Virus record (IMG/VR): IMGVR_UViG_3300035698_009252
Location: 64,001 to 128,000 of that record
DNA length: 64,000 bases
Direction: 5' to 3' (one strand)
From: a virus
Both the position numbers and the translations under genes were made by a program. This document shows positions 17,351 to 63,569 of the stretch, in pieces. Below the pieces are notes generated by a model. That model ran no database searches, had not been told where the DNA came from, and saw nothing but the letters and a program-made list of their open reading frames with translations. The first letter of the stretch is position 1; each line of letters begins with the position of its first letter.

Positions 17351-17373
17351 CCTATGACGGCTGTATCAAAGAA
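17351..17373 (-). promoter_or_regulatory. Bipartite promoter-like motif TTCTTTGATA-N8-ATAGG
   Basis: Repeated motif. Confidence 0.65.
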
Positions 17374-17384
17374 TAAATGCCCAT

Positions 17385-18559: not shown

Positions 18560-18572
18560 CTCATTAACCTCA

Positions 18573-20326: not shown

Positions 20327-20333
20327 AATTCCT

Positions 20334-20747: not shown

Positions 20748-20748
20748 T

Positions 20749-21189: not shown

Positions 21190-21199
21190 CGGGTTCACC

Positions 21200-22200: not shown

Positions 22201-22204
22201 ACTC

Positions 22205-23472: not shown

Positions 23473-23484
23473 GTCAATTCTCCG

Positions 23485-24573: not shown

Positions 24574-25613
24574 TTCAACTCCACCATTACGGTAATCCAA
24601 CTCTTCTCCCCATCCCCATAGTTTATGCGGACAATGGCCTGCCGGTATGGAGCAAGTAGCGGCTCAAGTATCTTTTTGAAGTTGTCAGTCTCCCTTTCGA
24701 CCATATCCCGGTACGTGCTATACCCAACATCGCTTTCTCCCTCTTTCGGCAAATCGGACCGATAGGAACCTTTAATACGGGTATTGCCACTGGAAATCTT
24801 CGCGTCATCCTTCATCCAGGGACTCTTCCTGGAAATGGCCGTATCGATGGCGTTGCTAACGCCCTTCGCTATTTTCTCCCTATTCGCAATGGCATCCGTC
24901 TCGCCCTTCAATCCACTCCACCCCTTCAGGGCCTCCAACATCTTCTGAGCCGCTTGTTTAGGGGACATTGACGTTGGTGTGCCATAGCTGCCAAACACTA
25001 CCCCAGGCCCCTCTGCCGATGTGGTATTTTCGGTAAGCGTAATTTCACGCTTCATCCCATCCGAATTTCTTCCATCAACGCGCAAGATGACCTGGTACAT
25101 CACCCCGGATGGATAGTCCTTCTTCTGCCACGGAATCACTTCCAGGGCCTTCGGGTCTTCCAGTTTCGAGCGAATAATGCGAACGACGGACTGGGAGAAT
25201 TTCTTAAGGGCCGGAGGAATGGCCTTTTTGGAAAGGGTTTGGACCACCTTCTGGGCCTGGCCGATTTGCCTGGTAAACCGCTTTATCATCACGTCGGCAT
25301 CTTTAACAGCCCGCTGTACGGTCTTGTCTTCGGGGAAGTTCGTCAGGATTTGCTGCACTTCCTTCTGCACCCGGTAAGCCGATTGAATGCCATCCTGGGC
25401 CTTCTTGAGCACGACAAACTGGCCATCCACCTCCGGGTCGAGACCTGCCTGGAAGTGCATGGAAAATGTCCCGATGGTGTCGTCGATATTGTCGGCCAAC
25501 TCATCAAGAGTACCCAAAGTGCGTAGAAGCCCCTTCAGGAGCCCTTTAGAGGCATCTGCTTCAAGCCGCCGGGCAATATTTGACATGCGTACTGGAAAGG
25601 CAATTTTCTTCAT
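24570..25613 (-). CDS. Hypothetical protein with short leader (RMSNIARRLEA)
   Basis: 347 aa ORF. Confidence 0.7.
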   Translation of the reverse strand: MKKIAFPVRMSNIARRLEADASKGLLKGLLRTLGTLDELADNIDDTIGTFSMHFQAGLDPEVDGQFVVLKKAQDGIQSAYRVQKEVQQILTNFPEDKTVQRAVKDADVMIKRFTRQIGQAQKVVQTLSKKAIPPALKKFSQSVVRIIRSKLEDPKALEVIPWQKKDYPSGVMYQVILRVDGRNSDGMKREITLTENTTSAEGPGVVFGSYGTPTSMSPKQAAQKMLEALKGWSGLKGETDAIANREKIAKGVSNAIDTAISRKSPWMKDDAKISSGNTRIKGSYRSDLPKEGESDVGYSTYRDMVERETDNFKKILEPLLAPYRQAIVRINYGDGEKSWITVMVELK

Positions 25614-25616
25614 TTT

Positions 25617-25862
25617 TTACTCGTTTGTCAGAGCCGGGAACACGTCGTAATCGTTCTGCAAAGACTTTACCGCTTCCCCAACCTTATCCGCCGGGATTTC
25701 CCCGGTGACCCTCTGGCCCCTCACTTTCAAGCGGGCTGACGGGAAGTCCGCAGAAAATGCTTCGGCCTCATCCTGCCCAACGAAGTACAGCTCGACTTCA
25801 ACATTCTGGGATGCAGTCGTCATCCGTTCTGCAATCCTCTGTAACCTGGTATTGTCGCTCAT
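25617..25862 (-). CDS. Short-leader protein (MSDNTRLQRIAERMTTA)
   Basis: Leader variant. Confidence 0.7.
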   Translation of the reverse strand: MSDNTRLQRIAERMTTASQNVEVELYFVGQDEAEAFSADFPSARLKVRGQRVTGEIPADKVGEAVKSLQNDYDVFPALTNE

Positions 25863-26485
25863 CTCGCGTTCCTTCCTTGAGTGGTAATACGAATGCCTTG
25901 GGCCATGATTTTGACCAAGCCCTTCTCTGCCAGGCTCTCGATAATGGGGTTGTCTTTGCCGTACTCGCCGAGCCGGTGCCGCAGGAACTCTTGCGCCCGG
26001 TAACTGCTCTTGATGCCTCCAACAATACCCAGAGCCGCCTTCTCGTCCGGGGTGAGGATAACATCGTCATCCGGCTCCGGCATTAACTTGTCGACATCTC
26101 CCGGTCGCACGTAGATACGAAGGAAATTGCCCCGGCCACCAGCTTCCCCGGCAATAACCACGGAACCATTCGGCACATTAAAGGATTCCTCCCGGTCGAG
26201 AGCCCGGTCCTCAAAGGGATTTGAGCCACCCCACGAGCCTTGCTGAGCGTCACTGATGCGACCAGTACTCAAGTCAACCGTCACGGACAGGGCTCTATTC
26301 CCCTCAAATGCCGTCGAAACGGAATACTTTGAGTCGTAGATGACCTCGATGTCCCGTCTGCCGTACCTGAGCCGTTTTAAGGCCCTTTGAACGGCATCAG
26401 GGAGGTCCCTAACGGCTACATGTATTCCACCCATGGCCTTAAGAGAGATTTTCCCTGCAATATGGACAATTCTACGTTCGTCCAC
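25859..26485 (-). CDS. Short-leader protein (MDERRIVHIAGKI), cargo with SWGGSNPF and a C-terminal wHTH-like segment
   Basis: Leader variant. Confidence 0.7.
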   Translation of the reverse strand: MDERRIVHIAGKISLKAMGGIHVAVRDLPDAVQRALKRLRYGRRDIEVIYDSKYSVSTAFEGNRALSVTVDLSTGRISDAQQGSWGGSNPFEDRALDREESFNVPNGSVVIAGEAGGRGNFLRIYVRPGDVDKLMPEPDDDVILTPDEKAALGIVGGIKSSYRAQEFLRHRLGEYGKDNPIIESLAEKGLVKIMAQGIRITTQGRNAR

Positions 26486-26496
26486 GGCAGCCCCCT

Positions 26497-26748
26497 TTAC
26501 GCCTCGGCCAATACCTGCTCCAGGGCACCCACCAGGTCTTCAACCGTGGAGTTCGGGCGAATCACGCCAATGCCGAACTGGTTCAGCTTCCGGCGCTTCT
26601 TCTGGCTCAGTTTGTTGAGTTTCGTCCGAAGGTTACGGATACGCCCCGCAAATGCCTCGTCCACTTCCTCGCCGTCATCGGCTGCTGTCAACTCGCGAGC
26701 CAGTGAAAGGAGCCTCTTCGCCGCCTGAATTCTCTTCGTGTTGGTCAT
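26497..26748 (-). CDS. Leader-tagged protein (RIQAAKRLLSLARELTAA)
   Basis: Shared leader, SD GGAGG. Confidence 0.75.
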   Translation of the reverse strand: MTNTKRIQAAKRLLSLARELTAADDGEEVDEAFAGRIRNLRTKLNKLSQKKRRKLNQFGIGVIRPNSTVEDLVGALEQVLAEA

Positions 26749-29069: not shown

Positions 29070-29146
<77 letters not shown>

Positions 29147-30211: not shown

Positions 30212-30285
30212 TTTCTCAGACTCTTGGCCAGCCTTTCGGCTGTTACCAGTTGACACCGCGTGGAGGTGGTCTGACATCGTCAACC

Positions 30286-30677
30286 TGGACGTGGGGAGAA
30301 TCGAACTCCCGTCCTGGACAGGCTCACCGTAAACCTCTACATGCTTATCCAGCTACTTTCTTTTGCCGCTGGCGGGCCGCACAACAGTCCTTCCCAGAGC
30401 ACCCCGTAATAAACGGTTCTGTTGTAGTACTCATTGGATGACATAGCCCGGCCACCCGCCGGGGTTCTACCTCTGTCGTTGCCGGACATCCCTTAGAGGT
30501 GTAGGGGAGCCGACACCGGGGCTGTTAAGCCGCCAGAGCGCGAGCGCCCTGGACTCCGGGGAATTGAAGAACGTTGCCGTTTACTTCAGTGTTGGAAGGC
30601 TTTTTAGGAGGCCAACCTTACCAACCTCCGCATGCAGTTAACGACTTGCATCTGCCAGTCGAAACCTTGTCACGCCC
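30286..30677 (-). ncRNA. ssrA: tmRNA, tag (A)GNVLQFPGVQGARALAA* at 30525-30578
   Basis: 5' GGGCGTG-ACAAGGTTTCGAC, 3' GGAC-GGGAG-TTCGATT-CTCCC-CACGTCC-A, G3:U70, tag ORF ending ALAA. CCA not encoded. Confidence 0.92.
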
Positions 30678-36370: not shown

Positions 36371-38761
36371 CTACTGCCGTCTACGGTCTATCGTATAGAT
36401 ATGGCACTGATTCATGTCGCTGCGACCCCAGAAAATGGTGTCACCCCGCCTTGCCACATTCCCGCCGAAGTCCCGCTGCCGGTCCTCCGCCGTCTCCCCG
36501 GTGATACTCCCCACATCGGTAAACTGGCTACCGTCATACGCCACCAGCTTGTCCGGGTCAGTTGCCGCGAAATAGACAAAGTGCTCGTCCGCCTTGGCAT
36601 CCTGGATACTCAATGTCCACGTGTCATGCAACACCTGCCAGTTACTACCGACCTTCTTGCTGATACGCCCGTCAGCCGCGAACCTCGACCCTGCCCCGGC
36701 ACCATGTCCCATGTACAGCTCATCCTGGAATACCACCAATTTCAATCCCGGAGATGGCTCGGTATGACCCGAGAACGTACCGTACACCTCGTCACCGAAG
36801 TTGGTCAGGTAATGATAATCATTCCCAAACTCAACGATGGACCGGACCAGTGCCTTAACCGGAAGTGTCAGGTAAACATGACCACTCCAGACATCAACCA
36901 CCTGTGGGTTCGTATGGAAGTTAGCCGGAGGCCGCAAGTCCCCACTGGAAGTGTATACCGGATGGCCTTGGTATACCGTCCCCGCCAAGTTCCACGGGTA
37001 CGGGCAACTATGGGCTTCCGTTAAGGCACCGTTCTCGTACACCAGGCACTTATTCCCGCCGTGCTCCGGGCAAAAGATAACCTGGTCATACCAAACAGTC
37101 GCAAGCTGCCACGTCTCTTCTGCGTCATACTTGTCATACAAGGTTTTGATGGGGCCAAAAGGAGGGTCCTCCCACATGAATATCTGGACATGCCACGGGT
37201 CCCGATAGACATTGCTGGTGCCCCAGAACAGGGCCTTGTACTTCTCGACGTACTCCATGAACGTAACCTTGTACGCATTGTCATCACTCGACCACACTTT
37301 CTTCGGGGACGAATGAACCCACTCACCCGTAGGAGGCGCATCTTCCGGGAAGTCAATCTGCTTCACCTCTAACTGTAAATCCCTCTTGTTGGCCGGAGCC
37401 TTCTCGTCATTGTCCACCAACCACATATTGACGTACAGATGCAGGTTGTCCTCTTCCGTCGGGATGTCGTCGCCCGTGTAGCTCCACTCGTCAATGACGT
37501 AATCGGAGGACGGAGGCTCGGCATAATGCCCATGGAACGACTTGAACGTAACCTTGTCGGGCTGCCATTCAATCACATGCGTCGTTGCCCCGCCATCCAA
37601 GTCCATCATCTTCTTGTGCTTGTGACCCGGCACGTCCCATGGCTGGACGCAATACTGGAGGTTGTATGACGCATTCTTCTTGCCCCAACGTGAGGCTTCG
37701 ATGTCAACTTCCTTGTCATCATCCGCCCACAGGAACATGCCCAGAACGATGTTCCGGTCGATATCGTCCAAGGATGGATTCGAGCAGTTGACGTAGAATC
37801 GGTACGTGCCGTACTTGGCCACGTCAACACACTTGGCTTCACCACACAACCACTTGCAGTTATCCTGCCGAATCTTCATATACAGACGGTTGGCATGGAT
37901 ATCCGCGTTGTATGGATGCCACCAGTTGCTCCCCGGCGCATATCTCTGCCCGTCCTGCTTGATGTCCCATTGACGGCCCATGAATGTCTGCGGGCTGCGC
38001 TTGTACATGGGGGACGTGGGTTCCGGCTGCGGGTCCGGGTCGGGCTGGGGGTCTGGGTCCGGCTGCTGTGGAGAGTCCGGGTCAACCAATTGAATGATAT
38101 TCGAGCGTTCCTGTACGCTCGTGACTCCTACCCGGTTATGGCCGCACACGCACAGCCAGACCTTGTCCGTCGTGCGATAAGCATAGTTCTCCCATGCGCC
38201 GGTAAAGATTTTCTTGTTGCCACGGTCACTCTTGAGAATCTTCTTCGCCTGAGTGTGCTGTCCTTGGAGCAACCATTCCGTCCACATCTGCGACTTCTGG
38301 CCATCCCGCTCCACGAATATCATAATGCTGCCATTCGGGTCGTTATGAATCTTGTCAGTCTTCGGCCATCTATCAGGATGGGAACCTTCCCATGACACGG
38401 TAGCGCCACCAATCTTGCCATTGCTGATATGACAAGTGATTGGCCAATTGTCTACACGGGCATCGCCACCATTCAGGGCGAAGCCAGCCGGGTTGATTGC
38501 GTCCAAAGACGGTTCGGGCTCAGGCTCTGGGTCCGGGTCTGGGTCCGGCTCTGGTTCTGGTTCTGGCTCCGGGTCCGGCTCTGGTTCTGGCTCTGGCTCC
38601 GGGTCCGGCTCTGGCTCTGGCTCTGGCTCCGGCTCCGGCTCTGGCTCTGGCTCTGGCTCCGGCTCCGGCTCTGGCTCAGGTTCTGGCTCTGGGTCCGGGT
38701 TATTGGGCTTCTTACCGCGTAAGAAATCAATTATCGACTGAAAGAAATCTGACAATGACAT
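36371..38761 (-). CDS. Multidomain protein: Pro-Glu linker, GH16-like glycoside hydrolase, C-terminal beta-propeller-like region
   Basis: [10 protein letters not shown] (GH16 ExDxE), [16 protein letters not shown]. Confidence 0.75.
38510..38700. repeat. Hexanucleotide repeat encoding (PE/PD)n
   Basis: About 30 consecutive Pro-Glu/Pro-Asp dipeptides. Confidence 0.9.
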
Positions 38762-46711: not shown

Positions 46712-46745
46712 AAAAAGAGACCCACGGTTTCCCGTGGGCCTCTCT
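46712..46745 (-). terminator. Intrinsic terminator after the major capsid gene
   Basis: AGAGGCCCACGG/CCGTGGGTCTCT hairpin plus T-run. Confidence 0.8.
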
Positions 46746-46797: not shown

Positions 46798-47658
46798 TTA
46801 GACCCTTGTGATGGCGAGGACTTGCAGTGCAAATGGGTTATATGCCCCAATGCCGAGCTGCTCGAAGATGCTGAATCCAATCAGGCGGTTCTTCGGGTCA
46901 TCGGCGGACAGCACCGTCAGCTCCGTACGCACCGGAATGCGACCGAAGAATTCGGGCTCACCGCAGACATACACGGTGCCTTCCGGCACAATGCGGCTGA
47001 CCATGAGCTTGGCACCCCAGAGGGTAGCCATGAGACCGGTCTTCAACAGAACGGCCTGCGTCTCGATGTCGAGCGTGTCCCTGTCCCACTTACGCAGGTC
47101 GGCGTAATCCTTGGCGTTCAGGAAGACGGACGCGACACGGATGTCGGTACGCTCCACGTTCGCGAAGGCATCTGCCAGGGCGTTCGCCGTCAGGTTGCCC
47201 GTGACGGGGATGCTCGGGTTCGGGTTCGTCGGGTCGGCGGCAAGGGCGTCCATAACTGCGAAAACCTTGCGGTCCTCTTCAGCCTGGATTTCGGCCTTGG
47301 CCAGGTCGACGGAGCGCTCAATCAGGTCGAAACGACGCTGCTTGATTTCCGTGAGCTGGATTTCCGGGTTCGACGCGATTTCGAAGAGCGGGAACAGAAC
47401 ACGCTTCGGCTTTGCGACCGCAACGATGTTCTCGCCTTCCTCACCGACCACGTAGGCGGTGATGTTCGGGTCCTTGTCGTAGATGGGGAGTGCGCCATCG
47501 GGAAGCGGCTCGACATAGAATGCCTTGCGACCGACCGAGGTGTAGTCCCTGCGACGACGCAGAGGCTGAATCATCGAGCTGGCCAAACGCTGGCGTCCTG
47601 CCGCCGTACGAATGTGCTGGCCAATGATTTCTTGTTTGGTTTGGTTGTCAACAGCCAT
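46798..47658 (-). CDS. Major capsid protein (HK97 fold)
   Basis: Follows the protease-scaffold-decoration genes, strong codon bias, own terminator. LPDGALPIYDKD and IQAEEDRKVF motifs as in large-phage MCPs. Confidence 0.85.
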   Translation of the reverse strand: MAVDNQTKQEIIGQHIRTAAGRQRLASSMIQPLRRRRDYTSVGRKAFYVEPLPDGALPIYDKDPNITAYVVGEEGENIVAVAKPKRVLFPLFEIASNPEIQLTEIKQRRFDLIERSVDLAKAEIQAEEDRKVFAVMDALAADPTNPNPSIPVTGNLTANALADAFANVERTDIRVASVFLNAKDYADLRKWDRDTLDIETQAVLLKTGLMATLWGAKLMVSRIVPEGTVYVCGEPEFFGRIPVRTELTVLSADDPKNRLIGFSIFEQLGIGAYNPFALQVLAITRV

Positions 47659-48322: not shown

Positions 48323-49450
48323 TTACCTGAAGACACTGCTGACGTCCGGGGCCGTGTCCCAGATGCCGCTGATGTCATCCGCTCCACTGCCCTGACCTGC
48401 GGTCATGGCACGCGGCTGTCCACCAAGTTCCTTAATACCAGCCTTGGCCTTGCGAGCCTTCGGCTGAACCGTCTCGGCACCTTCCTTCGGGATGGTTTCA
48501 TCCTCGAAGATTTCTGCCAGACGGGGGTCTGCTTCGACATCGTCGCCCAGGTCCATCCCCGACGCGGAGGTCAGTTCGATGTCCAGTTCGTTCATGCCGC
48601 GACGCGGAGCGGAGGCTTCCTTCTTCTCGTCGTCCTCGTCCTCGTCATCATCCGCTTTCTTGTCCGAGGCATCGGAATCATCCTTCTTGGAATCATCCTT
48701 GTCGTCCTCGTCTTCGGCCTTCTTCGGCTCGACGGCGGCGTCCTTCTTGGACTCGTCACCCTTGTCGTCCTCGTCCTTGTCGTCGGCGGCTTCCTTGGCG
48801 TCGTCCTTCTTCGACTCGTCCTTGGCGTCGTCCTTCGACTCGTCAGCGGCTTCCTTGGATTCCTCGTCCTTCTTGGCGTCGTCCTTCTTGTCGTCGTCTT
48901 CGGCCTTCTTCGACTCGTCCTCGTCCTTCTTGTCGTCTTCGGCCTTCTTCGACTCCTCGTCGTCCTTCTTGTCGTCGTCTTCGGCGGCTTCCTTCTTGGA
49001 CTCCTCTTCTTCGTCCTTCTTGTCGTCCTCCGCGACGTAGAGTTCCTGCGAATCGACGAAACGCTGAAGTGTCCGGTCGAGAGCTTCAGGGCCGAGGGCC
49101 ATAAAGTCACGAGCCTGGGCTTCGATGGTCTCGTCATCGACCTTCTCGCCCAACAGGAGCACTGCCGCCCTGACCGCCTTCGATGCGGCTATCTTGACGG
49201 AAGCAACGGTCGGGCCGTTGGTTTCGGGGATACCGAAACCGATTTCGTCCCTGGCGTCACTCTTCCACTCGGTCCGCATGTCCGGGAAGGGGTGATTGGT
49301 GGTTTCCCACTCAATCCCGTATTCGTCACGTTTCTTGAACTTCCGTTCCGGCTGATTCACTGTACCGGGATAAGGGATGGAATCTTCCACCGCCCTACGC
49401 CCACGCGAAGCTGCCCGACGGGGGTCTGTAAGTCTGATTCTCCTTGCCAT
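48323..49450 (-). CDS. Capsid scaffolding protein
   Basis: Highly acidic KKAEDDDKKD repeats, located between protease and MCP. Confidence 0.7.
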   Translation of the reverse strand: MARRIRLTDPRRAASRGRRAVEDSIPYPGTVNQPERKFKKRDEYGIEWETTNHPFPDMRTEWKSDARDEIGFGIPETNGPTVASVKIAASKAVRAAVLLLGEKVDDETIEAQARDFMALGPEALDRTLQRFVDSQELYVAEDDKKDEEEESKKEAAEDDDKKDDEESKKAEDDKKDEDESKKAEDDDKKDDAKKDEESKEAADESKDDAKDESKKDDAKEAADDKDEDDKGDESKKDAAVEPKKAEDEDDKDDSKKDDSDASDKKADDDEDEDDEKKEASAPRRGMNELDIELTSASGMDLGDDVEADPRLAEIFEDETIPKEGAETVQPKARKAKAGIKELGGQPRAMTAGQGSGADDISGIWDTAPDVSSVFR

Positions 49451-49452: not shown

Positions 49453-50136
49453 TTATGCCCTCCTCGATGCTTTCTTGGCGCGGGCACCAATGGCGTCAGA
49501 AATCCTGTCTATTCTGAGCGCCAATTCGGTGCGACCTTGCCGTTCCAAGTAACTAGCCACCCGGTCCAAGCGGTCACCCGCCCGGCCCAGACGGGCCACG
49601 TATTCTTCCGCAGCGGTATGACCGGTCGGAGCCACGTCCAGCATCGAATCGCCGGTTGTGAGTTCCTTCCCGTGTGCCACTTCCTCGACCGCGTCGAGGT
49701 AATCCTGCGAAATATCATCCTCGACGCCGGGAGCTGTCTCGCTGCCCTGCTTGCTGCTGCCCATCATTGGACCGTCGCAGAATTCTTCGCCGAGCCCCAA
49801 GTCCTCGTCCATGCCGAGTTCCTCGTCGAGGTCTTCTCCGAGTCCCAGGTCTTCGCCGAGCCCCAGGTCTTCGCCGAGTCCCAGGTCTTCGCCCATGCCG
49901 AGTTCGTCGACAACGACTGATTCGCCCAGGTCCTCATCCATGCCGAGTTCGTCGACAACTACCTCGTCTCCGAGCCCGCCCTCGTCGTCCATATAGGACA
50001 TCGCGTCCAAGCGACGGTCGAGTGCATCGATTTCAGAAGCAAGGGTTGGGGCATCGCTGCGCTGGGACTTTGGCTGGGCCGAACCCAGTTTCTGTTCCAG
50101 GGCCTCGACCCTATTCCTCAATGTTTTATCCGCCAT
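49453..50136 (-). CDS. Acidic head-assembly/scaffold-like protein
   Basis: GLGEDL repeats, C-terminal helix ELALRIDRISDAI. Confidence 0.6.
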   Translation of the reverse strand: MADKTLRNRVEALEQKLGSAQPKSQRSDAPTLASEIDALDRRLDAMSYMDDEGGLGDEVVVDELGMDEDLGESVVVDELGMGEDLGLGEDLGLGEDLGLGEDLDEELGMDEDLGLGEEFCDGPMMGSSKQGSETAPGVEDDISQDYLDAVEEVAHGKELTTGDSMLDVAPTGHTAAEEYVARLGRAGDRLDRVASYLERQGRTELALRIDRISDAIGARAKKASRRA

Positions 50137-50180
50137 TTTCCGTCCTCCTGTCATTACGCAAAGACACCATTCAGTTCTAC

Positions 50181-50256: not shown

Positions 50257-50550
50257 TTACGTCATCAAACGCTTGGCCATCGCGACTAAACGACGGGCAA
50301 GTGCTTCACTCTCCGATGCCGACAACGGCCAATTCTTATTGGCGCGTGCGTTCTCGTCCTTGATATCTTCACTCACGGACTCGGGGATCGCTTCGGAGAC
50401 TTCCTTCGCCTCTTCTTTTGCCAACCCCTGGGCCTCATTCGCGAGTTCTTCGTCAATTCCGCCCTCAACCATCCTCTCAAGCGCGTCAATTTCCGCAAGG
50501 ATTCCACGCGGACCACGAGCCGTCAATCTCTGTCTTGTTCTCATCTTCAT
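50257..50550 (-). CDS. Small head protein with C-terminal leader-like helix (ALARRLVAMAKRL)
   Basis: Shares LAxEIDAL with 49453-50136. Confidence 0.6.
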   Translation of the reverse strand: MKMRTRQRLTARGPRGILAEIDALERMVEGGIDEELANEAQGLAKEEAKEVSEAIPESVSEDIKDENARANKNWPLSASESEALARRLVAMAKRLMT

Positions 50551-50555
50551 CTCCT

Positions 50556-51548
50556 TTATTGCCACACACCACGAGCAACGCGCTCGATAATAGATTCACG
50601 ATTCCTACGTAGAAGTTCCTCGCGAGCCACACGCAAAACAATCATGCCAGCCCGGTCGGCAACTCTCAGCTTGAATAAATCCTCAACCGTTTCAGACAAT
50701 CTCGCCGTCGGGAATTGGAGAACCTGCGCGGCCTTTGGTATTTCGGAAATCAGGTGATTAAGTACGGCACCAACAAATGCGGGCTTGTCTACCCAACTTG
50801 CCTCAATAAATTTGACGGATTTCGGGTCACCCGCCAATTTACCGTCCTGCTCAATCATCCGGCCACACAACTCAGCGACTATGCGCTCAATACCATCCTC
50901 GTCCATAAAGGATTGCATGAGCTGCCTGTCAATGTGTTCGCAATTCGGGTCATTATCGGCGAGAACCTTGCCGCACCGGCTGCATGTGACATAATCCGCC
51001 AGACACCCCATACTCATTGTTGTGAGTTTCCCAGACGTAATATCTCGGACAAGACCACCGTGTTTCAGGTTCGTGGCAACGAGAATATCAATATAGTAGA
51101 CATCGGCTTCACGGCCCTTCTCGTCCTTGTAGCAAATGGGCCGGGCAACGGCATCCAGGATTTTGCCCTTGGAGAGTTCGGGGATTTGTACGTGCTCCAG
51201 GTAATTCTCTCCGCCAACGAACGAACGGAAAGTGGACAGTAATACCTCGTTCGTCCACGCATTACCGTTATTATTGACGAGTTCGGAGCACGCGGGTTCA
51301 ATATAGTAGCCATTTTTCGCGGTGGCAACTGACGAGACGATAGTACAATGGCTGAATAGATGGCTGTCCGGCGTAAAGGTGCCCCAGTCTACGTCAATAT
51401 CCCTGGCTACACGAACGCGGCCATGCCCGGACGCCAGACGGTGCCAATCCTGCCGGGGATTGGGAAGAATAGTGGCAACGGGCATATCCAGGCTGAACGT
51501 CCTGGCCCCGGCCATCATCAAACACGCATCTGTAGTGCAACGTCTCAT
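50556..51548 (-). CDS. Prohead maturation protease
   Basis: NNNGNAW...ENYLEH...TMSMGC..CSRC..CEH...FIEASWVDKPAF pattern of herpes/HK97-like serine prohead proteases, plus position. Confidence 0.7.
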   Translation of the reverse strand: MRRCTTDACLMMAGARTFSLDMPVATILPNPRQDWHRLASGHGRVRVARDIDVDWGTFTPDSHLFSHCTIVSSVATAKNGYYIEPACSELVNNNGNAWTNEVLLSTFRSFVGGENYLEHVQIPELSKGKILDAVARPICYKDEKGREADVYYIDILVATNLKHGGLVRDITSGKLTTMSMGCLADYVTCSRCGKVLADNDPNCEHIDRQLMQSFMDEDGIERIVAELCGRMIEQDGKLAGDPKSVKFIEASWVDKPAFVGAVLNHLISEIPKAAQVLQFPTARLSETVEDLFKLRVADRAGMIVLRVAREELLRRNRESIIERVARGVWQ

Positions 51549-51844
51549 TATGTGGCTTCCTCTAAAATGTCCATCAATGCTGTTTGCAACACGGTCTCTT
51601 CGTAACTCGGCGTATCCCACTGAATCTTCCGCATGGCCTTGACAGCCTGCTGGGCATCTTTGGACAGCATCTCCATCTCACGAATGCCCAACTCAAGCCC
51701 ACGCCCACCCGCCTTAATCATGCGTTCGGCATTTGCCAGACGCTTGGACATACTCCCGTGCCCGGCAGACAGAACCTTTGAGATACGAGAAATGGCCCGC
51801 AGGTCTTCCTTTACCGCAAATAATTCGTGTGCCAGCTTTATCAT
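51548..51844 (-). CDS. Hypothetical protein with leader-like start (MIKLAHELFAV)
   Basis: Coupled ORF. Confidence 0.6.
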   Translation of the reverse strand: MIKLAHELFAVKEDLRAISRISKVLSAGHGSMSKRLANAERMIKAGGRGLELGIREMEMLSKDAQQAVKAMRKIQWDTPSYEETVLQTALMDILEEAT

Positions 51845-52365
51845 ATCCCCAATCTCCGCATAACGTGAGCCGCGCCTCTGCTGTCCAAACCCTTTACGAA
51901 TTCCAACAACTTCTCTTGCGGGTCAACCTCTGGCTCTGCATCCTGAATCGAATACTTCGCACGTGCCGCCATGATGACATTGGCCAACTTTGCGTCTCTA
52001 ACCTGAAACTCTTCACTGGACCAACCGTTACGCGGGAATGGGCCGCCCGCCCGTGTTCGCTCGTGCCCGTACTTTTTCAGTGCCGAATTGATATTCTGCA
52101 ACTTCGGCTTGGCCAGCGTGCCCACGCCTTGGTCGAATATCGTCGCACTGCGAGTCCTATCCCCACCGAGCCCGGAGCTGCGGCGTTCCTCCACGATTTT
52201 TAGCGACAGCTTGCCCGACGCCGTATTGAGGGACAATTCCGCTCTACGGCTGTTACTGTCGTACTCCCATTGCCAGTACGACGAGTTCTGGGCAATTAGC
52301 ACCTCGCCAGAGACAATGCCTCTGGCAAGACGCACCAATCGCCGAGCAATTGCCACCTCCCGCAT
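51841..52365 (-). CDS. Leader-tagged protein (MREVAIARRLVRLARGIVS)
   Basis: Shared leader. Confidence 0.7.
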   Translation of the reverse strand: MREVAIARRLVRLARGIVSGEVLIAQNSSYWQWEYDSNSRRAELSLNTASGKLSLKIVEERRSSGLGGDRTRSATIFDQGVGTLAKPKLQNINSALKKYGHERTRAGGPFPRNGWSSEEFQVRDAKLANVIMAARAKYSIQDAEPEVDPQEKLLEFVKGLDSRGAAHVMRRLGI

Positions 52366-52420
52366 CGGAACCTCCATTTCAACTCACGCGCCCTTATGGA
52401 GCGACGCCGGAAAGGCAGGT

Positions 52421-55131: not shown

Positions 55132-55556
55132 TAAGCCCCTACAACTCGGTCTCCACCCGTCCTTCTCTCAAACCGGCCATCCGCTTCCTTCTCATCCACC
55201 GGAGTCAACGTGCTCGTCGGGTCATTCTCCCACCGGGTCTTGTCCACGATGGTTGTAACCGCCGGAGTCCCGGCATGCGGGAACGTGCCTCCGTCACCGT
55301 GCATGACCTGGTCATCCACGATGTTCCGACCCAGTTTGACAACCCGAGACCGCTGCATTTCCACCGGCCCGGCAGCTTCACCGCTGAATGCCGGAGTCCC
55401 CTGCGGAATACGATTGTCCTTCTCCCAAGCCATATCCCCTTCACGGGAAGTTGCCTTACCGGGATAAAACTGGGTACGACTGGCCTGGGATGGGGATTGC
55501 TGCCCCGCACCGAGGTCATTGCTTGTGTAATCTACTCTTTCGTTTGTCGCCATCAT
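55131..55556 (-). CDS. Hypothetical protein
   Basis: Coupled ORF, SD GGAGGTG. Confidence 0.6.
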   Translation of the reverse strand: MMATNERVDYTSNDLGAGQQSPSQASRTQFYPGKATSREGDMAWEKDNRIPQGTPAFSGEAAGPVEMQRSRVVKLGRNIVDDQVMHGDGGTFPHAGTPAVTTIVDKTRWENDPTSTLTPVDEKEADGRFERRTGGDRVVGA

Positions 55557-55819
55557 TCACCTCCTTCAAATTGCTGCATGGCTTTTACGATGTCGGCCAA
55601 ATACGGCGCAACACCTTCGTCTAACGATTCCCTGGCGGAATCCAGTGCCGCCTTCTGAGGAACACTCTCTGCCTTGATTTTCGGCAAATTCTCGTTGATG
55701 ATTTGTACGCAGCGAATCATCATATCGATGGACTGGTCGACCATCTCCAAGGGCTCATCGCTCTCTTCTCCTTGTGCGACCCTGTTTGTCATTTTGGCTA
55801 TCCTCGTTTGGTCCATCAC
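55553..55819 (-). CDS. Short-leader protein (MDQTRIAKMTNRVA)
   Basis: Leader variant. Confidence 0.6.
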   Translation of the reverse strand: MMDQTRIAKMTNRVAQGEESDEPLEMVDQSIDMMIRCVQIINENLPKIKAESVPQKAALDSARESLDEGVAPYLADIVKAMQQFEGGE

Positions 55820-57291
55820 GCATACTCCTCTTTGAGAAGGCGGATGGCATCCTGCCTGGACAACTCCTTGCCCAACCCCGCCAATTCGTCCATCTTGTCC
55901 CGCAGAAATTGAATGGCTTTGCCCACTTCCGGTCCCTGACCTAACCCCAAAATCTGCTGTACCTCGTGCCCATTCAACGGTGGTTTCTCCGATATCGGGA
56001 TGTCCTGAACGTCCTCAATCATTTCGCGAAGCTTCGGAATTTCGTTCCGAGGCGGCAGATTCCCCAACAAATCAGCTTCGGCCAAGTCCAGCACGGCGTC
56101 AATCAACTCCTCACCCACATTGCGAATGAACTTCCGCAAAGCCTTCGGCCCCACCCTGTCGTCACGGGTCATGGCGTGTGGACGCATGTGCATCTCCACC
56201 ATGCGCCTGACAGACTTGATGTCCTTCTTCTCAAACTTCAACCGCCGCATGATGGCTTCGGCAATTTCCCCACCAACCTTTTCATGGCCAATGAACCGGA
56301 CCAGGCCGTCAAGAATCTCCCTGGACTTCGGCTTGCCCACGTCATGTAACAGGGCACCTAGCTGGTTTAGAACGCCTGGCTGGGCACTCCGCAACACCAG
56401 CATGGTGTGTTTGAAGACATCGCCCTCCTGGTGAGCACCACGGGTGTATTCATGTTCCACGCCCTGCATTGCCTCTATTTCCGGGAAGACGTACTTCAAC
56501 AACCCTAATACCTTCATCAACCGGATAGCCTGGGCCAGCTTGCCCACATCCATCACTTTGATAAGTTCATCTCGGATACGTTCCCCTGAGACAATCTTGA
56601 TACGGCCCGCATTCGCCCGCACAATCTTGATAACCGATATAGGAACCTTCCACCCATACTTAGCCTGGAAGCGAACCAGGCGAATCATCCTGAGAGGGTC
56701 TTGCCGGAGAATCTCGGCAAAGTCTACGCCCGGATGGCCCCGCAAGAGTCCCTTCTTGATGTCGGCCACGCTGGTCCCGGTCAAATCCTTCAGCTCGCCG
56801 GTTGTCAAATCCTTCAGGACCATGTTGACGGTAAAATCTCGGCGCTCGATATCTTCTTTCAGGGTGCCAGGCTCAGTTAGCCGCTGCCGGGAGTCCTCAT
56901 CAGGAAATGATTCCTTCTGAGCATCGGCAATCTCAATCTCCGCACCTGCGGTTGCGTACTCTTCGCCATCGAACTCTATATCGTCCTTGAAGGTGATAGC
57001 CCATATGGGGTACTTCCCTTTCTGGACTGGGCGGCTTGTCTCCCTCGTGAACTCGCGATGGAGATAGGTAGTGAGCTTCTTCGCTCCACCCTTCATCTCG
57101 ATGACAACGTCCAGGTCCTTGGACGGCAATCCCATGATTTCGTCACGAACGTATCCGCCCACCGCGAAGGTCTTATTGGCAAAGGGGGTGCCCCGCAGTA
57201 ACGCCTTCATCAGACGTTCCACTTCTTTCTCGGCGGATGCCGCCAAGATTTCGCGAGCTACCTTGAGCACTTCTTTGACCAATCCGTTCAT
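55816..57291 (-). CDS. cca: CCA-adding tRNA nucleotidyltransferase (class II) with HD domain, leader-tagged
   Basis: VGGYVRD..DLD, EDIERRDFTVN, DPLRMIR, ERIRDEL, HT..LLHDVGKP. Start MNGLVKEVLKVAREILAA. Confidence 0.88.
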   Translation of the reverse strand: MNGLVKEVLKVAREILAASAEKEVERLMKALLRGTPFANKTFAVGGYVRDEIMGLPSKDLDVVIEMKGGAKKLTTYLHREFTRETSRPVQKGKYPIWAITFKDDIEFDGEEYATAGAEIEIADAQKESFPDEDSRQRLTEPGTLKEDIERRDFTVNMVLKDLTTGELKDLTGTSVADIKKGLLRGHPGVDFAEILRQDPLRMIRLVRFQAKYGWKVPISVIKIVRANAGRIKIVSGERIRDELIKVMDVGKLAQAIRLMKVLGLLKYVFPEIEAMQGVEHEYTRGAHQEGDVFKHTMLVLRSAQPGVLNQLGALLHDVGKPKSREILDGLVRFIGHEKVGGEIAEAIMRRLKFEKKDIKSVRRMVEMHMRPHAMTRDDRVGPKALRKFIRNVGEELIDAVLDLAEADLLGNLPPRNEIPKLREMIEDVQDIPISEKPPLNGHEVQQILGLGQGPEVGKAIQFLRDKMDELAGLGKELSRQDAIRLLKEEYA

Positions 57292-57574: not shown

Positions 57575-58150
57575 TCACTTTGCTGTTACAATTTCCGCGA
57601 AGATGCACTCCGCACAGTACTCTGCTCTGTGATTCCCCAACTCGAACCGCCGGATAATATCCTCAGCTTCCGGGGTCCGCACAATCCGGTCGGTTTCTGC
57701 CATCAACCAGTCTTGCCTCTTGAAATCCTTCTCACTGATGCCCTGCTCAGATTCAAAGATGTTGTGCAGCCCCGACTTCACCTTCCGATGGTAATTCTGT
57801 TCCGGCAGCATCAGCCCTTCCCAGGCTCCGGCTTCCGTCCTATCGAGAGGGTGGACTGACGATTTTTTAACCATTGGCCGACGACTTGGCTTCTTCACCG
57901 GACGGTCCTTGTTCTCATTCGTGTCCTTGTCCTTCTGTTCCGGCGTCTTGCGCCTGTCCCGATGCCGTTCCTTCACGTCATCCCGTGGGGGCTTGACATG
58001 CGGCTCACGGTCGCGCCCCTTGGACGTGCCACCCGTGTCCTGTATCAAGTCCTTGTCCTTGCGAACAACCTGATTCCCTCGGGACGCCAAAACGAATTGA
58101 GCAACCCGCTCAGCTATCGCGATTCTCTTTACTATGAGGTTTGCGTCCAT
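57575..58150 (-). CDS. Hypothetical protein with short leader (KRIAIAERVA)
   Basis: Coupled ORF. Confidence 0.6.
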   Translation of the reverse strand: MDANLIVKRIAIAERVAQFVLASRGNQVVRKDKDLIQDTGGTSKGRDREPHVKPPRDDVKERHRDRRKTPEQKDKDTNENKDRPVKKPSRRPMVKKSSVHPLDRTEAGAWEGLMLPEQNYHRKVKSGLHNIFESEQGISEKDFKRQDWLMAETDRIVRTPEAEDIIRRFELGNHRAEYCAECIFAEIVTAK

Positions 58151-58896
58151 TACCACTCTATGATTTGGTTCCGCTGGTCGTACTTGAACCTTGGCCGGAG
58201 CAGGGGCTCATCGTTCAGGGCCTGTACCATCTCTCTGGCATCGTTGTAATTCACGCGCTCGCCCAGGATAAGGTCACCCATCTCAAACCAGAAGTCCTCG
58301 CCCTGTGAGAATCCAGCATCCTCCAAGGTGCTCCCGACAATCTTCTCGAACCCCGCCACGCGGGCACTTGCCTCCAGGGACCGTTCCTTAACAATCCTGC
58401 CAATGATGGGTGCCTCGCGGTCTGCGAGCATGGCCACCTTCTCCTTTGGCTTGGCACGGCCCGGCTTGGCACCGAGCAGTTCGTTGACCATCTTCATCAT
58501 GTTATCCATGAGGCCCATGACTTCGCCCGGTGTAACCTGGCCATCACTCTTGATTTGCTCGATTTCCTGGGAGATACCATCCACGATAGATGTCAGGTCA
58601 TCTTCTGCCGGTGCGGATTCATCCACTGCCGCGTCCTCGGCTACCTCTTCCTCGGGAGCCTTTTCTTCCGGGGGCGTCTTTTCCTTACCCTTCGGTGGCT
58701 TCTTGTCTTTCTTCGACGGGGCCGCCTTCTCGTCCTCCTTCTTTTTGCCGTTCGTCTTCTCTTTGACTTTCTTGACAACCTTGCCTTTGTCGTTATTGGA
58801 AAGTTTCGCAAAACGCTCAAAAACGGGATTATCCCGAATGGAAGCGAGAAGAATTCTTCCCCATGCCACTCTGCCCTCAATCGCTTCTATATTCAT
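58150..58896 (-). CDS. Hypothetical protein next to portal
   Basis: 248 aa, with IEGRVA and SARVA motifs. Confidence 0.6.
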   Translation of the reverse strand: MNIEAIEGRVAWGRILLASIRDNPVFERFAKLSNNDKGKVVKKVKEKTNGKKKEDEKAAPSKKDKKPPKGKEKTPPEEKAPEEEVAEDAAVDESAPAEDDLTSIVDGISQEIEQIKSDGQVTPGEVMGLMDNMMKMVNELLGAKPGRAKPKEKVAMLADREAPIIGRIVKERSLEASARVAGFEKIVGSTLEDAGFSQGEDFWFEMGDLILGERVNYNDAREMVQALNDEPLLRPRFKYDQRNQIIEW

Positions 58897-58914: not shown

Positions 58915-60876
58915 CTACATTGCCGCCCCGACTTCTTCAACCGCCTGTGATATATCGTCATCCGTCGCGCCCTCGGGCAACTGTTTGGCAATACCTTCGG
59001 CCACCGATTCAATATCCTCATCGGACAAAGCCGCCGCCGGAGCACCACCTTCTTCAGCCGGGGCACCTTCTTCTCCACTGCCAAAGTCGCCGAAGCCGCC
59101 GAATTCCCCTTCTTCTCCACCACCCTCACCGCCTCCCTCTTCTTCAGGCTGCTGGTATTCCAGGGCCAGGTACTTGGAAACCTTCTCGACAATGTCGGTC
59201 CGCTCTACAACCGCCCGGCCAATCTCTTCACTGGCCCCCTCGATAATCCGATTGAAGTTGGCATCCTTGACGGTGAACAGGTCTTCCAGCAACTGCGAGT
59301 CAATCTCGTCCGAGTTGAGGTTGAACAGCTCGTAGATGATATCCACGGGAATACTGCCCTTCTGGTAAAGCTGGAACAGGCTATCGAATACTTCCGCGTT
59401 GTCACGGATGGTAAGCCGGTTGAAGCCAACCTTCGGATACCAATATTCCTTGATGCCGTTGTCGTCCTCATCGTACCAGTTATGCGCTTCACAAATCGGG
59501 AGGAACAGGCTTTTCTCGATGTAATCCTGAAGCACCATCCTGGTAAGCAGGAACATCGTGTTTAAGATATCCACCGTGATTTTACTGCCACTGAAGGTGC
59601 TTTCACCTGTCAACAGCTCACGAGTAACACCCATCGCCGCAAAAACCTCACGCTCGATACGCTCATACTCGTCGGTGAGGCTGAGCAACCGGTCCTGTGC
59701 CCCTATCTGCTCCCAGGTCACCTCGTAGTTCGTCACGATGGTGTAGTCCGGGTCCAGGTAGCTCAAGTCAATCTGCGTGCGCAAATCATCCAACTCATCC
59801 CGCAGCAAACCAGGAGCCGTAACCATGTTCTTCGGAGTCATGTTACGGGATGCCAAACTGAGCTGGGTATACCGGTAATGCTCCTTTTGAAGCATGGGAA
59901 CCATTACGCGCTCCAGCACGGATGCACCAAGGTCCTGGTAGGGGGATTTCCGCCGGGAAATGTGGTGGACAAAAGAGCCCGTGCTGGGGTCACTGTCCAT
60001 CACAATGCAGTTCTGGTCCTTGACCATCGCCACAATCTCTGGCGGAATCCCTTCCAGAATCTCCCCGGTCATATTCGACCGGTCGCAATCCCCATCGGCA
60101 CCCGGAACCATCGAGCCACTACCATCCCCTGTGCCATGCCCAACGTTGTCCCTAATCAGCTTGATGAGCCGTTCGGGGCGATACTCGACACGCTTGTTCT
60201 TCTGGAAGGGGTATTCGAAGACGCCAACTTCCTCGGGTGGCAACATAACGGCCCGAGACCACATCTTCTTTTTATCGTCCCACTCGTGGAACATGTAGAC
60301 ATTGCCAATCATGTTCCATTCCCAGAGGATGCTCTGGCAGGTCTCAAAGCCGCCAATGACTTCCATCTGGTTGTTAAAGAACCGTAGAATATCGTCACGC
60401 TGCTTCTTCTTGAGCTTCTTCGAAACCTTGGGCATCGTGAGGGTAAGCTTCGACATGGGCAAGTCGGAGAGCAACTCCAAGGCCCGGCCAATGTAAGCGT
60501 CACTCCTCGCCCAGTATCGATACCAACTATACTTCTCCTTGAGGGTCGTCGGCCAATAGAGGATGCCGCCATTCTGCTCGTTCATCTGAACGAAGTAGCG
60601 GGGAATATCGTAGGTACCACTACGGCCTCCAAGCCCGTAAGCATACGACGTGCGGTACGCCTCAAGCTGATAGCCGGACTGGTAGTACGATGTGTCCTGG
60701 GACATATCGAGCATCATCCCAGCCTGCTTGTTCATGCCAAAGCCTCCCGCCCCCATCGCCTTCTTTGCGATACGGCCCTTGACGGGGTCGAGCTTACCTG
60801 TGCGGACTTTTGGTCGTGGCAGCCCTCCCTTGGTTGGGCTGGTCACTGGCGTTCTTTTGAGTTCTTCGTTTGCCAT
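58915..60876 (-). CDS. Portal protein
   Basis: 653 aa between terminase and protease. YIGRALELLSDLP, WNMIGNVY, HHISRRKSPY, acidic Gly-rich tail. Confidence 0.8.
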   Translation of the reverse strand: MANEELKRTPVTSPTKGGLPRPKVRTGKLDPVKGRIAKKAMGAGGFGMNKQAGMMLDMSQDTSYYQSGYQLEAYRTSYAYGLGGRSGTYDIPRYFVQMNEQNGGILYWPTTLKEKYSWYRYWARSDAYIGRALELLSDLPMSKLTLTMPKVSKKLKKKQRDDILRFFNNQMEVIGGFETCQSILWEWNMIGNVYMFHEWDDKKKMWSRAVMLPPEEVGVFEYPFQKNKRVEYRPERLIKLIRDNVGHGTGDGSGSMVPGADGDCDRSNMTGEILEGIPPEIVAMVKDQNCIVMDSDPSTGSFVHHISRRKSPYQDLGASVLERVMVPMLQKEHYRYTQLSLASRNMTPKNMVTAPGLLRDELDDLRTQIDLSYLDPDYTIVTNYEVTWEQIGAQDRLLSLTDEYERIEREVFAAMGVTRELLTGESTFSGSKITVDILNTMFLLTRMVLQDYIEKSLFLPICEAHNWYDEDDNGIKEYWYPKVGFNRLTIRDNAEVFDSLFQLYQKGSIPVDIIYELFNLNSDEIDSQLLEDLFTVKDANFNRIIEGASEEIGRAVVERTDIVEKVSKYLALEYQQPEEEGGGEGGGEEGEFGGFGDFGSGEEGAPAEEGGAPAAALSDEDIESVAEGIAKQLPEGATDDDISQAVEEVGAAM

Positions 60877-61456: not shown

Positions 61457-61870
61457 TCAATCTTCGACACCTGCTTCTTCTTCCATTGCCTTCAATCGCG
61501 TGTAGTAATCCTTGATTTCTGCCAAGTGGTCTAGGGTAATCCTCACCGCCACGAACATGCAGGACGTGTGCTCCATCTCAATCTCAATGCCCATCGCGAG
61601 TTCCGTCGGGTCTGCATCATCCGCCGTGAACCCTTTCTCATTCGCCCGCCCAGCAAACAAAAACGTCGTGAACAGGGTCGCCAGCCGGTAAGCCGCTGCC
61701 TCTGCCACATGCTTATCCATGCCCTCTTCTTCGGCCCATGCGTGGAAATCGCTGTCACTGGGAGCCGGGTGCTCCTGAAGGAACTTGGCCACCTGCAACG
61801 CCATGGGGTCAATCCCCATCGTGTCTGCCGCAACCCTGCCCGCAATTTTCTCGAACCTGTTCATTTTCAC
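61457..61870 (-). CDS. Short-leader DUF5661-like protein
   Basis: RFEKIAGRVAA, then ELAMGIEIEMEH...DHLAEIKDYYTRL. Confidence 0.7.
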   Translation of the reverse strand: MKMNRFEKIAGRVAADTMGIDPMALQVAKFLQEHPAPSDSDFHAWAEEEGMDKHVAEAAAYRLATLFTTFLFAGRANEKGFTADDADPTELAMGIEIEMEHTSCMFVAVRITLDHLAEIKDYYTRLKAMEEEAGVED

Positions 61871-62489: not shown

Positions 62490-63569
62490 TCAGTCCCTGT
62501 ATTCGATTGGTATCCCTATACTATTGGCAAGAATATCAAATAATTCTCCATGTGGGCTATCAGTTTTTCCGATAAGGGCATGAATCAACTCGTGCCCTAC
62601 AACAGCCTTCCACTTGTCCGCTGTGAAATTCTTCGGGCTGATGGTAATCAGTCCCTTTCCCCGGCCCTCATCCAGGTCCAGGGGAAGATATGACCCGACC
62701 TTGCCTTCCGGGAGGTCCCAGTCATTAATTTGAATCTGTAAGGGGATATACGGAGGCAACGCGCCCTCTACCTCCTCGTAAGCCGCCTCTAGCAAGGGGA
62801 TTACGTCTTTGGAGTAAGCCATCGCCATGCGCCAGTAAGCCCAGTTCTCGACCGCAAGTTGGACGGCAATCCGACTATCTGAGGCATTCTTGATCTTCTT
62901 GACGGTGCCATTCTTAACGTAGGCTTCCTCGACACCCGGCAAGAGATAATGTTGTTTCAGGGTTGCTTGTTGGTGCCCCACCTTCTCGGCAACGGCTTTC
63001 AAAACCTCCCTAAATTGTTTTTTTCGTTCGTCGGGGTCCTTCGGGGTCTTGCTGTTCTTCAGCATGTTATAGACCAGGGTGTTGGCGGCATAGCCCCGGA
63101 TGTCCTTTGCCGTAACCCCAAACTCCTTCAAGTACCGGTTTACCTGGGGGGCCTTAATGTGCAACCCCTCAGAAGTCACCAGGACCGGTCCATTCTTGTC
63201 CTTACAGTTCCCTTTGCATGCATTCAAGAGCTTGGCAATTAGCTTATCGGTGAATGTCTTCTCGTGGTCGACCCCGGACTTCCCGGTGTACTTGAACGTA
63301 ATGGTGTTGCCGGAAATCGTCATCTGACTCTTCTTGAAGCCCGTTACTCCGACATGCCCGTCCTTGGCAGACGATTCGTTGCCAACCCGCTCTGCCGTCT
63401 TATCGATGATTGCTACCGCCAAGGCCGTAATCCGCGTTTTCTCGTCATCGGACTTCATGTCCTTGGTGATTTTGCTCCGCAGCTTGTGAATCTGCTGGGC
63501 AAGAGAACGGACGGACTTCGTCTTTTTCTGTCGCCGGGTCTGCTCTTCTGGTGTCATTGGCTTTGGCAT
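62490..63569 (-). CDS. DNA topoisomerase IB catalytic domain fused to a SprT-like zinc metalloprotease
   Basis: Catalytic pentad in RVGN, GKSG, KDIR, VGH, TLKQHY. C-terminal GHELIHAL...PHGELF. Confidence 0.8.
   Translation of the reverse strand: MPKPMTPEEQTRRQKKTKSVRSLAQQIHKLRSKITKDMKSDDEKTRITALAVAIIDKTAERVGNESSAKDGHVGVTGFKKSQMTISGNTITFKYTGKSGVDHEKTFTDKLIAKLLNACKGNCKDKNGPVLVTSEGLHIKAPQVNRYLKEFGVTAKDIRGYAANTLVYNMLKNSKTPKDPDERKKQFREVLKAVAEKVGHQQATLKQHYLLPGVEEAYVKNGTVKKIKNASDSRIAVQLAVENWAYWRMAMAYSKDVIPLLEAAYEEVEGALPPYIPLQIQINDWDLPEGKVGSYLPLDLDEGRGKGLITISPKNFTADKWKAVVGHELIHALIGKTDSPHGELFDILANSIGIPIEYRD

Follow-up and report, generated by a model that had tools for sequence, protein, structure and literature searches.

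Here we describe a gene for a class II tRNA nucleotidyltransferase with a C-terminal HD phosphohydrolase domain (hereafter the CCA enzyme), which lies among the head genes of a huge phage and starts with a short helical peptide, the leader, of a kind found on many unrelated proteins of the same phage. The window, by which we mean the whole 64,000-nucleotide stretch analysed, covers bases 64001-128000 of the 139.6-kb IMG/VR contig IMGVR_UViG_3300035698_009252. CheckV rates this contig as 43% complete at 139.6 kb, and the phage is therefore a huge phage. The window has a G+C content of 53% and carries nearly all of its genes on the minus strand. By major capsid protein (MCP) and portal protein, the closest records are the uncultured 485-kb phage LR745208, Tunturiibacter phage Tunturi_5 and Bacillus phage G. 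Because 120 metagenomic database proteins share 71-97% identity with its MCP, the clade is a large one.

A tRNA nucleotidyltransferase gene between portal and protease

The CCA enzyme is encoded by a minus-strand open reading frame (ORF) whose product begins MNGLVKEVLKVAREILAA, as an earlier sequence-only reading of this DNA had it, and the same start methionine is used in orthologues. Its ATG lies 2 nt past the stop codon of the upstream ORF, and its own stop codon overlaps the start of the next one. That reading had also placed the gene between the portal and protease genes and away from the RNA genes. Both placements were borne out: portal and prohead protease were recognized by PHROG matches, and the protease also by its gp21 fold, the CCA gene lies between them within the block that runs from portal to MCP, and the genes for transfer-messenger RNA (tmRNA) and tRNA-Met are about 25 kb away.

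The domain content is that of a tRNA nucleotidyltransferase. Pfam matches comprise PolyA_pol (PF01743, residues 42-184), PolyA_pol_RNAbd (223-274) and HD (PF01966, 310-409), the last scoring above its cut-off together with the HDIG model TIGR00277, and PHROG 2244 (tRNA nucleotidyltransferase) is matched at 1.9e-54. The top NCBIfam model, TIGR02692 for the actinobacterial CCA enzyme, scores 192.7 bits against a cut-off of 438.8, and all equivalog cut-offs are missed. Judged by sequence, the protein is a member of a distinct phage subfamily, with no named cellular enzyme as its equivalog, and this subfamily is confined to huge-phage contigs.

We aligned 49 orthologues, among them the window protein, to assess conservation of the catalytic residues. 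Residues G45, G46, R49, D50, D59, D61 and R151/D152 of motifs A and B are invariant or nearly so. In the nucleotide template of motif D, (E/D)DxxR, D198 and R201 are invariant, and at the first position most orthologues have D where the window protein has Q. Invariance extends to the HD domain, both for its metal ligands (H295, H316-D317 and D407) and for H336 and H368. The AlphaFold2 (AF2) model of the enzyme has a mean predicted local distance difference test score (pLDDT) of 89.5 and adopts the head-neck-body-tail fold, which VIA aligned from residue 14 or 21 to residue 491 with 27 solved CC-, CCA- and A-adding enzymes and bacterial poly(A) polymerases at Z scores of 22-30, among them 29.8 (Aquifex CC-adding enzyme 3WFR, residues 21-491), 26.7 and 25.9 (Bacillus CCA enzyme 1MIV).

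Between its motifs A and B, the head domain has an insertion of about 40-50 residues that is rich in beta structure, with modelled strands at residues 96-141. The segment between the motifs (residues 66-141; 56869-57096, minus strand), which we take, going by the Bacillus enzyme, to be some 40 residues longer than in solved CCA enzymes, could affect substrate choice. On model and sequence, the enzyme looks intact and functional, and among CC, A and CCA addition it is a candidate for either CCA or CC addition.

A portable leader in a long and a short form

Many minus-strand ORFs of the phage open with the long leader M-x-x-Q-x-IARELVAVARELxA. With a profile built from 22 copies, 27 sites were located in the contig; all have the correct frame and strand, and the bearers are mostly unrelated ORFs. 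Identity among the copies is 0.67, 0.81 and 0.41 at first, second and third codon positions, a pattern that indicates conservation at the level of the protein; an RNA-level cause was rejected because third positions are 41% identical versus 81% for second positions and 59% of same-residue pairs differ in codon. A short form, M-N-R-F-E-R-IAGRVA, and its variants head other ORFs. Usually the leader is N-terminal, sometimes it is C-terminal (in P0031 and in the window ORF at 50257-50565), and in natural fusions it is internal, with one copy before each module. The tag is a portable amphipathic helix present on dozens of unrelated phage proteins. A Pfam search with ten proteins of the long-leader array revealed only a Zn-ribbon and a WGR domain, both in one of them. 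Literature string searches for the leader motif and for capsid targeting in jumbo phages found no description of the tag, nor of a protease tail redeployed as a general label for cargo.

The longer CCA orthologues are in-frame fusions with SprT-like peptidase, SET plus topoisomerase IB, P-loop kinase, Toprim-like and unknown domains, and nearly every module is preceded by its own methionine and leader-like helix; P0031 ends in a canonical long leader. These proteins are either polyproteins or products of genes that have lost an intervening stop codon. The fusion proteins are P0011, P0014, P0023, P0031, P0038, P0060, P0061, P0072, P0086, P0098, P0112 and P0120, and topoisomerase IB/SET or SprT is fused in frame to the CCA enzyme in P0098, P0038 and P0060.

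A complete 304-kb relative (G003) has a dialect of its own, KIAK-[LI]-[LI]-IAD (..SKIAKIIIAD..), on about 12 ORFs that lie together next to its head module and CCA gene (loci L110-L125, at about 53-81 kb).

The N terminus of the CCA enzyme

On an ungapped position-specific scoring matrix (PSSM) of the long-leader family, the N terminus of the CCA enzyme scores 16.5-16.7 bits and ranks 28th among 150,052 six-frame windows, right behind the family members. Canonical members score 20-47 bits, the best wrong-strand window 11 bits and an internal helix of the HD domain of the CCA enzyme 10-12.8 bits. Only 22 of 500,000 shuffles of the N-terminal residues reached the observed score (P about 4e-5). 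The sequence-only reading had stated that the enzyme carries the cargo leader; this stands in so far as the PSSM (16.5 bits) and the leaders of orthologues speak for it, and it is tempered by a local HMMER search with the leader profile, which missed this N terminus. By sequence, the fit to the long leader is weak but real.

We collected 120 CCA orthologues, 52-78% identical and from contigs of up to 398 kb, and scored 115 of them on the PSSM. Across the 120, the helix AEKEVERLLK and everything downstream are highly conserved, and the 15-20 residues ahead of it vary freely within the leader pattern. At this site 25 of the 115 score at least 12 bits, with 32.4 in P0104 and 31.3 in P0007, and other orthologues bear the short leader instead, for example MDRFERIAGRLA in P0058. 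In the relative G005, the CCA N terminus ranks 14th among the 16-odd leaders of that genome.

The leader is also set apart structurally. The pLDDT is 49-58 over residues 1-20 and at least 92 from residue 21. Alignments to the 27 solved cellular enzymes begin at model residues 14-27, so that residues 1-13 are covered by none of them; the first residue of the Bacillus enzyme falls opposite model residue 18, and the Thermotoga enzyme, with 11 extra residues, aligns from residue 14. A search of 185,579 species genomes supplied the 79 nearest cellular homologues, at 28-35% identity; none of them has a leader-like N terminus (maximum 6.2 bits on the long-leader PSSM), nor does any of 60 distant viral homologues (maximum 6.8 bits), and neither set reaches 10 bits. 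Residues 1-19 are thus predicted to be an add-on outside the enzyme fold, in agreement with the earlier expectation that alignment with cellular CCA enzymes would mark the leader as an extension.

The short leader and the tail of the prohead protease

An exhaustive VIA search of the AF2 model of the protease against 48,161 PDB representatives resolved its fold: the top match was T4 gp21 (5JBL; Z score 10.3, root mean square deviation 2.7 over 135 residues), and the only other chain with a Z score of at least 8 was the varicella zoster virus protease (9.2). Foldseek against the PDB gave only weak herpesvirus-protease rows. The C-terminal tails of the protease orthologues read LRVAD..GM.VLRVA.EE..RR...., followed by motifs such as DRLWKIAGRLV or MIERVARG.

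We built a tail profile from 59 distinct orthologue tails, with no N-terminal leaders in the input, and ran it over the six frames of the contig. Among 165,636 windows, each of the 6 best fell on the N-terminal short leader of a real ORF (positional P about 5e-6), and the top 4 exceeded the maxima of 20 proteome shuffles. In the reciprocal test, the short-leader PSSM of this genome placed its own protease tail at ranks 18 and 31, inside the noise. On the evidence of the tail profile, the short leader is the same motif as the end of the protease tail. The tail of the HK97 protease (gp4), reportedly the subject of work by Duda et al. in 2013, takes that protease into the prohead. For phage SPN3US, the C-terminal propeptide of the protease (gp245) has been proposed to target the prohead core (PMC7411985). 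Because it matches the protease tail, and because of the proposed role of the SPN3US tail, the short leader is best read, by analogy, as a putative prohead-addressing peptide.

In some relatives the protease orthologues contain large insertions (706 to >934 aa; loci L007, L025 and L009, and protein P0246). P0246 has intein/homing-endonuclease Pfam domains, and the insertions are therefore inteins in the prohead protease gene.

Neighbouring genes

Features of the window are collected in Table 1. The portal-to-MCP block is tightly packed, and its sole strong terminator (46714-46745) lies just after the MCP gene. Between portal and protease, 5-7 of 13 genes carry a leader of either form. The order portal-CCA-protease is kept in 10 of the 11 loci whose CCA enzyme is at least 59% identical, and also in L019. 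Relatives keep the 88-residue ORF beside the CCA gene, and in six of them a segment of the 193-residue ORF is fused in frame directly before the CCA enzyme; the basic-motif segment of this ORF gave no family match.

Table 1 Features of the window that bear on the CCA enzyme and its leader.
Feature	Position	Strand	Evidence
Class II tRNA nucleotidyltransferase (CCA/CC-adding type) with C-terminal HD phosphohydrolase domain, 491 aa	55816-57291	minus	Pfam, PHROG, NCBIfam, AF2, VIA
N-terminal leader, residues 1-19 (MNGLVKEVLKVAREILAAS), divergent long-leader copy	57235-57291	minus	PSSM
Conserved helix alpha1 of head domain (AEKEVERLMKALLR)	57193-57234	minus	Nearly invariant in 120 orthologues; solved-enzyme alignments begin at or just upstream
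Nucleotidyltransferase head domain, motifs GGYVRD, DLD, RRD	56740-57168	minus	PF01743 residues 42-184, invariant columns
HD domain; H295, H316-D317, K320, H336, H368, D407 family-invariant	56065-56364	minus	PF01966, TIGR00277, invariant columns
Prohead protease, T4 gp21/herpesvirus assemblin fold, with helical tail of ~40 residues after low-confidence linker	50556-51548	minus	phrog_18299 3.3e-11, AF2, VIA
Protease C-terminal tail (...LRVADRAGMIVLRVAREELLRRNRESIIERVARGVWQ), last helix with short-leader motif	50559-50675	minus	Conserved in orthologues
Array of small, mostly unrelated ORFs starting with long leader (consensus M.xQxIARELVAVARELxA)	8550-26739	minus	
Portal protein	58915-60876	minus	phrog_16240 7.4e-18; tblastn matches to portals of Tunturi_5 and phage G
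HK97-fold MCP	46798-47658	minus	phrog_2522 4.4e-53
Scaffold-like protein, acidic repeats and terminal helices	49453-50154	minus	Position and sequence; no family match
102-aa acidic ORF between protease and scaffold-like gene, long leader at extreme C terminus (SEALARRLVAMAKRLMT)	50257-50565	minus	Profile E 0.0025
178-aa ORF just upstream of protease, N-terminal long leader (EVAIARRLVRLARGIVSG)	51841-52377	minus	19.1 bits, profile match
88-aa ORF overlapping CCA stop, N-terminal short leader (MDQTRIAKMTNRVA)	55553-55819	minus	16.6 bits on protease-tail profile, genome rank 4
193-aa ORF, short-leader-like N terminus, basic motif RKDKDL..DTGG.SKGRDREP..KPPRDDVKER	57575-58156	minus	Conserved motif
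137-aa ORF upstream of portal, N-terminal short leader (MNRFEKIAGRVA), DUF5661 domain	61457-61870	minus	PF18905 7.8e-14; 17.3 bits on protease-tail profile, rank 2
tmRNA, possible substrate	30285-30677	minus	Rfam RF00023, 105.9 bits
tRNA-Met, encoded CCA present	29070-29146	minus	

For the two scaffold-like ORFs (49453-50154 and 48323-49450), tblastn gave no match in any related locus. Because the MCP is conserved (71-97%) and these ORFs have no match in relatives, the scaffold is more likely than the MCP to be the partner that co-evolves with the fast-changing leader.

As the sequence-only reading had noticed, the tmRNA has no encoded 3′ CCA: its gene ends in ...ACGTCCA and GGT follows. The CCA must therefore be supplied post-transcriptionally. 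A U1-U72 mismatch atop the acceptor stem of the tRNA-Met may make it initiator-like. ARAGORN also called a 96-nt tRNA-Leu(CAG) at 38486-38581 on the plus strand, inside the minus-strand ORF 36371-38761; this is probably a false call, with no Rfam support at the gathering threshold. Just upstream of the portal gene, a minus-strand ORF (62490-63569) encodes a eukaryotic-type topoisomerase IB core (PF01028, 3.6e-31) fused to a SprT-like metallopeptidase motif, with the leader-like DSRIAVQLAVEN between the two halves.

A proposed role in the virion

The enzyme class, the leader, the match of its short form to the protease tail and the position of the gene allow us to propose that the capsid takes up the CCA enzyme and delivers it along with the genome, a reading that we regard as plausible, if just short of probable. 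Injection had been put forward in the sequence-only reading, which is thus partly supported. The tag would attach the protein that bears it to the prohead core or scaffold during assembly, and the CCA enzyme, made late with the head proteins, would be enclosed in the capsid and would reach the next host together with the DNA. In the new cell it could repair damaged tRNA 3′ ends or rebuild missing ones before the phage genes are expressed and perhaps, equally ahead of any phage gene expression, add CCA to the phage tmRNA. A broader proposal is possible but rather doubtful: that a portable tag derived from or mimicking the protease tail loads at least 30 swappable proteins in a clade of widespread uncultured huge phages, distant kin of phage G, and that one of these proteins is an injected tRNA-repair enzyme countering tRNA-directed defences before phage gene expression.

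Several observations count against capsid loading. The link of the window CCA enzyme to the head rests on the long and short leaders being interchangeable, for which the grounds are that both forms replace each other at the same CCA site in orthologues, occur in the same gene arrays and share the core IA-x-x-[LV]-[VA]-A. The window CCA leader itself, which is of the long type, scores -0.8 bits on the protease-tail profile. Between the long-leader profile and the protease family hhalign found no significant relation, and on the protease tails the long-leader PSSM reached at most 6.7 bits among orthologues of normal length (an outlier of 11.8 bits in the 573-aa P0359 falls within an unrelated C-terminal extension). 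A distance of 30-45 kb separates the large leader array from the head module. The long-leader profile had no matches in Tunturi_5, phage G, LR745208, LR756501 and five large relatives, several of them complete genomes, and in orthologues of 49-58% identity the CCA gene is not near the portal gene. Covariation of the CCA N terminus with the local leader dialect in G003 was suggestive in a two-way comparison and was then discarded, as its genome-wide rank of 85 is not significant; the protease tail of G003 gave no match to that dialect. At the level of the enzyme, the AF2 model shows residues 2-31 as a single continuous helix with no linker, and cellular enzymes of the actinobacterial type have a short helix (QRAVSELLRVAP type) at the equivalent position.

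Some of these points would fit a tag that serves as a docking or oligomerization element for a partner outside the capsid (a cytoplasmic assembly, a chaperone or regulated turnover), with an enzyme that works late in infection to keep up the translation of structural proteins and to complete the tRNA and tmRNA of the phage. The tag is modular and position-independent, most tagged genes sit in the array far from the head module, and in some relatives the CCA gene stands beside RNA-repair genes such as RlaP and not beside head genes. Late co-expression with the head genes would suit a late translational demand, and the tmRNA requires CCA addition. Yet the short tag matches the tail of a prohead protease, the leaders are enriched between portal and protease, one of them is on a protein encoded between protease and scaffold, and no alternative hub was identified. 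We consider this explanation unlikely, although it is a serious contender.

Alternatively, this branch of class II enzymes could have inherited the N-terminal helix as a structural element; its resemblance to the leader would then be convergence between amphipathic helices, and the gene a 'moron' in the head module. A helix at this place is not unprecedented, because enzymes of the actinobacterial type and that of Thermotoga have an N-terminal helix or extra residues there. The best NCBIfam match is the actinobacterial CCA model, tblastn alignments reach query residues 5-26, and the Thermotoga enzyme aligns from model residue 14; the HMMER miss and the 10-12.8 bits of the internal HD-domain helix point the same way. 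The sequence-only reading had named cellular homologues with the same N-terminal helix as the finding that would overturn it: a helix of the actinobacterial type does exist at the site, but it fails the leader profile, with cellular helices scoring 6.2 bits at most. The segment is, moreover, the least conserved part of a family that is 52-78% identical, and its modelling confidence is low. The type of leader, long or short, changes between orthologues, P0007 and P0104 reach 31-32 bits, and the arrangement of residues in the window protein beats 499,978 of 500,000 shuffles. Inheritance of the helix is therefore improbable. In several actinobacterial CCA enzymes (L135, L139, L147, L166 and others), a short conserved N-terminal helix, Q.RAV.ELLRVAP, precedes alpha1, and we know of no described role for it.

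It is equally improbable that the enzyme is not a CCA-repair enzyme at all and instead adds poly(A) or oligonucleotide tails, or only CC or A, to another RNA: the nearest solved structure is the Aquifex CC-adding enzyme (Z score 29.8), the NCBIfam equivalog cut-offs are all missed (192.7 versus 438.8), relatives are labelled 'poly(A) polymerase' in databases and the beta-rich insertion in the head domain is unusual, but the template residues D198/R201 and the RRD motif of CCA-, CC- and A-adding enzymes are invariant, the whole-length fold matches are tRNA nucleotidyltransferases and PHROG 2244 is matched at 1.9e-54.

Comparison with known systems

Phage CCA enzymes and the T4-style loading of a few proteins into capsids are both already known. 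To our knowledge, no injected tRNA-repair enzyme has been described. The gp21 family of proteases cleaves at S/A/G-x-E sites, and the leader of this phage holds A-[KR]-E strings that resemble them. T4 cargo uses an N-terminal capsid targeting sequence (CTS), which is present on the internal proteins IPI-III and Alt and is removed by the prohead protease gp21 (PMC7411985). As in T4, a short helical terminal peptide is common to unrelated proteins, the phage has a prohead protease of the gp21 fold and the putative cargo would include a host-modifying or host-repairing enzyme. Unlike the T4 CTS, the tag has no sequence likeness to it, is longer, occurs in two forms, can also be C-terminal or internal and marks at least 30 proteins, for which cleavage and packaging are candidate properties. 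The MCP also differs from that of T4, being a small HK97-type protein.

The likeness to the tails of SPN3US gp245 and HK97 gp4 is that the protease of this phage has a separate C-terminal helical tail, whose motif recurs as the N-terminal short leader; it differs from them in that the role of its tail is a putative one.

Effectors linked to MuF and polyvalent proteins encoded beside the portal have been predicted to be packaged and injected (PMC5512222), and a term search of the text of that article returned no mention of CCA-adding enzymes. Here too, enzymatic modules lie directly downstream of the portal gene, and relatives fuse the CCA enzyme in frame to the peptidase, topoisomerase, SET, kinase and Toprim-like modules named above. 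The ORFs between portal and CCA enzyme have no MuF or other Pfam match, although the adjacency to the portal is present, and in contrast to the MuF arrangement the modules of this phage are mostly separate genes, each with its own leader.

tRNA nucleotidyltransferases (PHROG 2244) are common in jumbo phages (PMC7824862). The CCA enzyme belongs to the same class, with a presumed role at tRNA 3′ ends, whereas the described phage enzymes are untagged and in GAP31, the single annotated case that we checked, the gene is not part of the head module. Compared with the Aquifex CC-adding enzyme (3WFO-3WFS) and the multifunctional Cca of E. coli, the CCA enzyme shares the head-neck-body architecture and the C-terminal HD domain, is 22-24% identical and adds both the leader and the beta-rich insertion.

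If the proposed role is correct, phages would pre-arm their virions against host defences that cleave tRNAs or modify tRNA ends. The tag is short, modular and usable at either end of a protein, and mimicry of the prohead-protease tail is the candidate logic by which it would work. If so, it would provide a sequence rule with which the injected proteome of many uncultured huge phages may be predicted.

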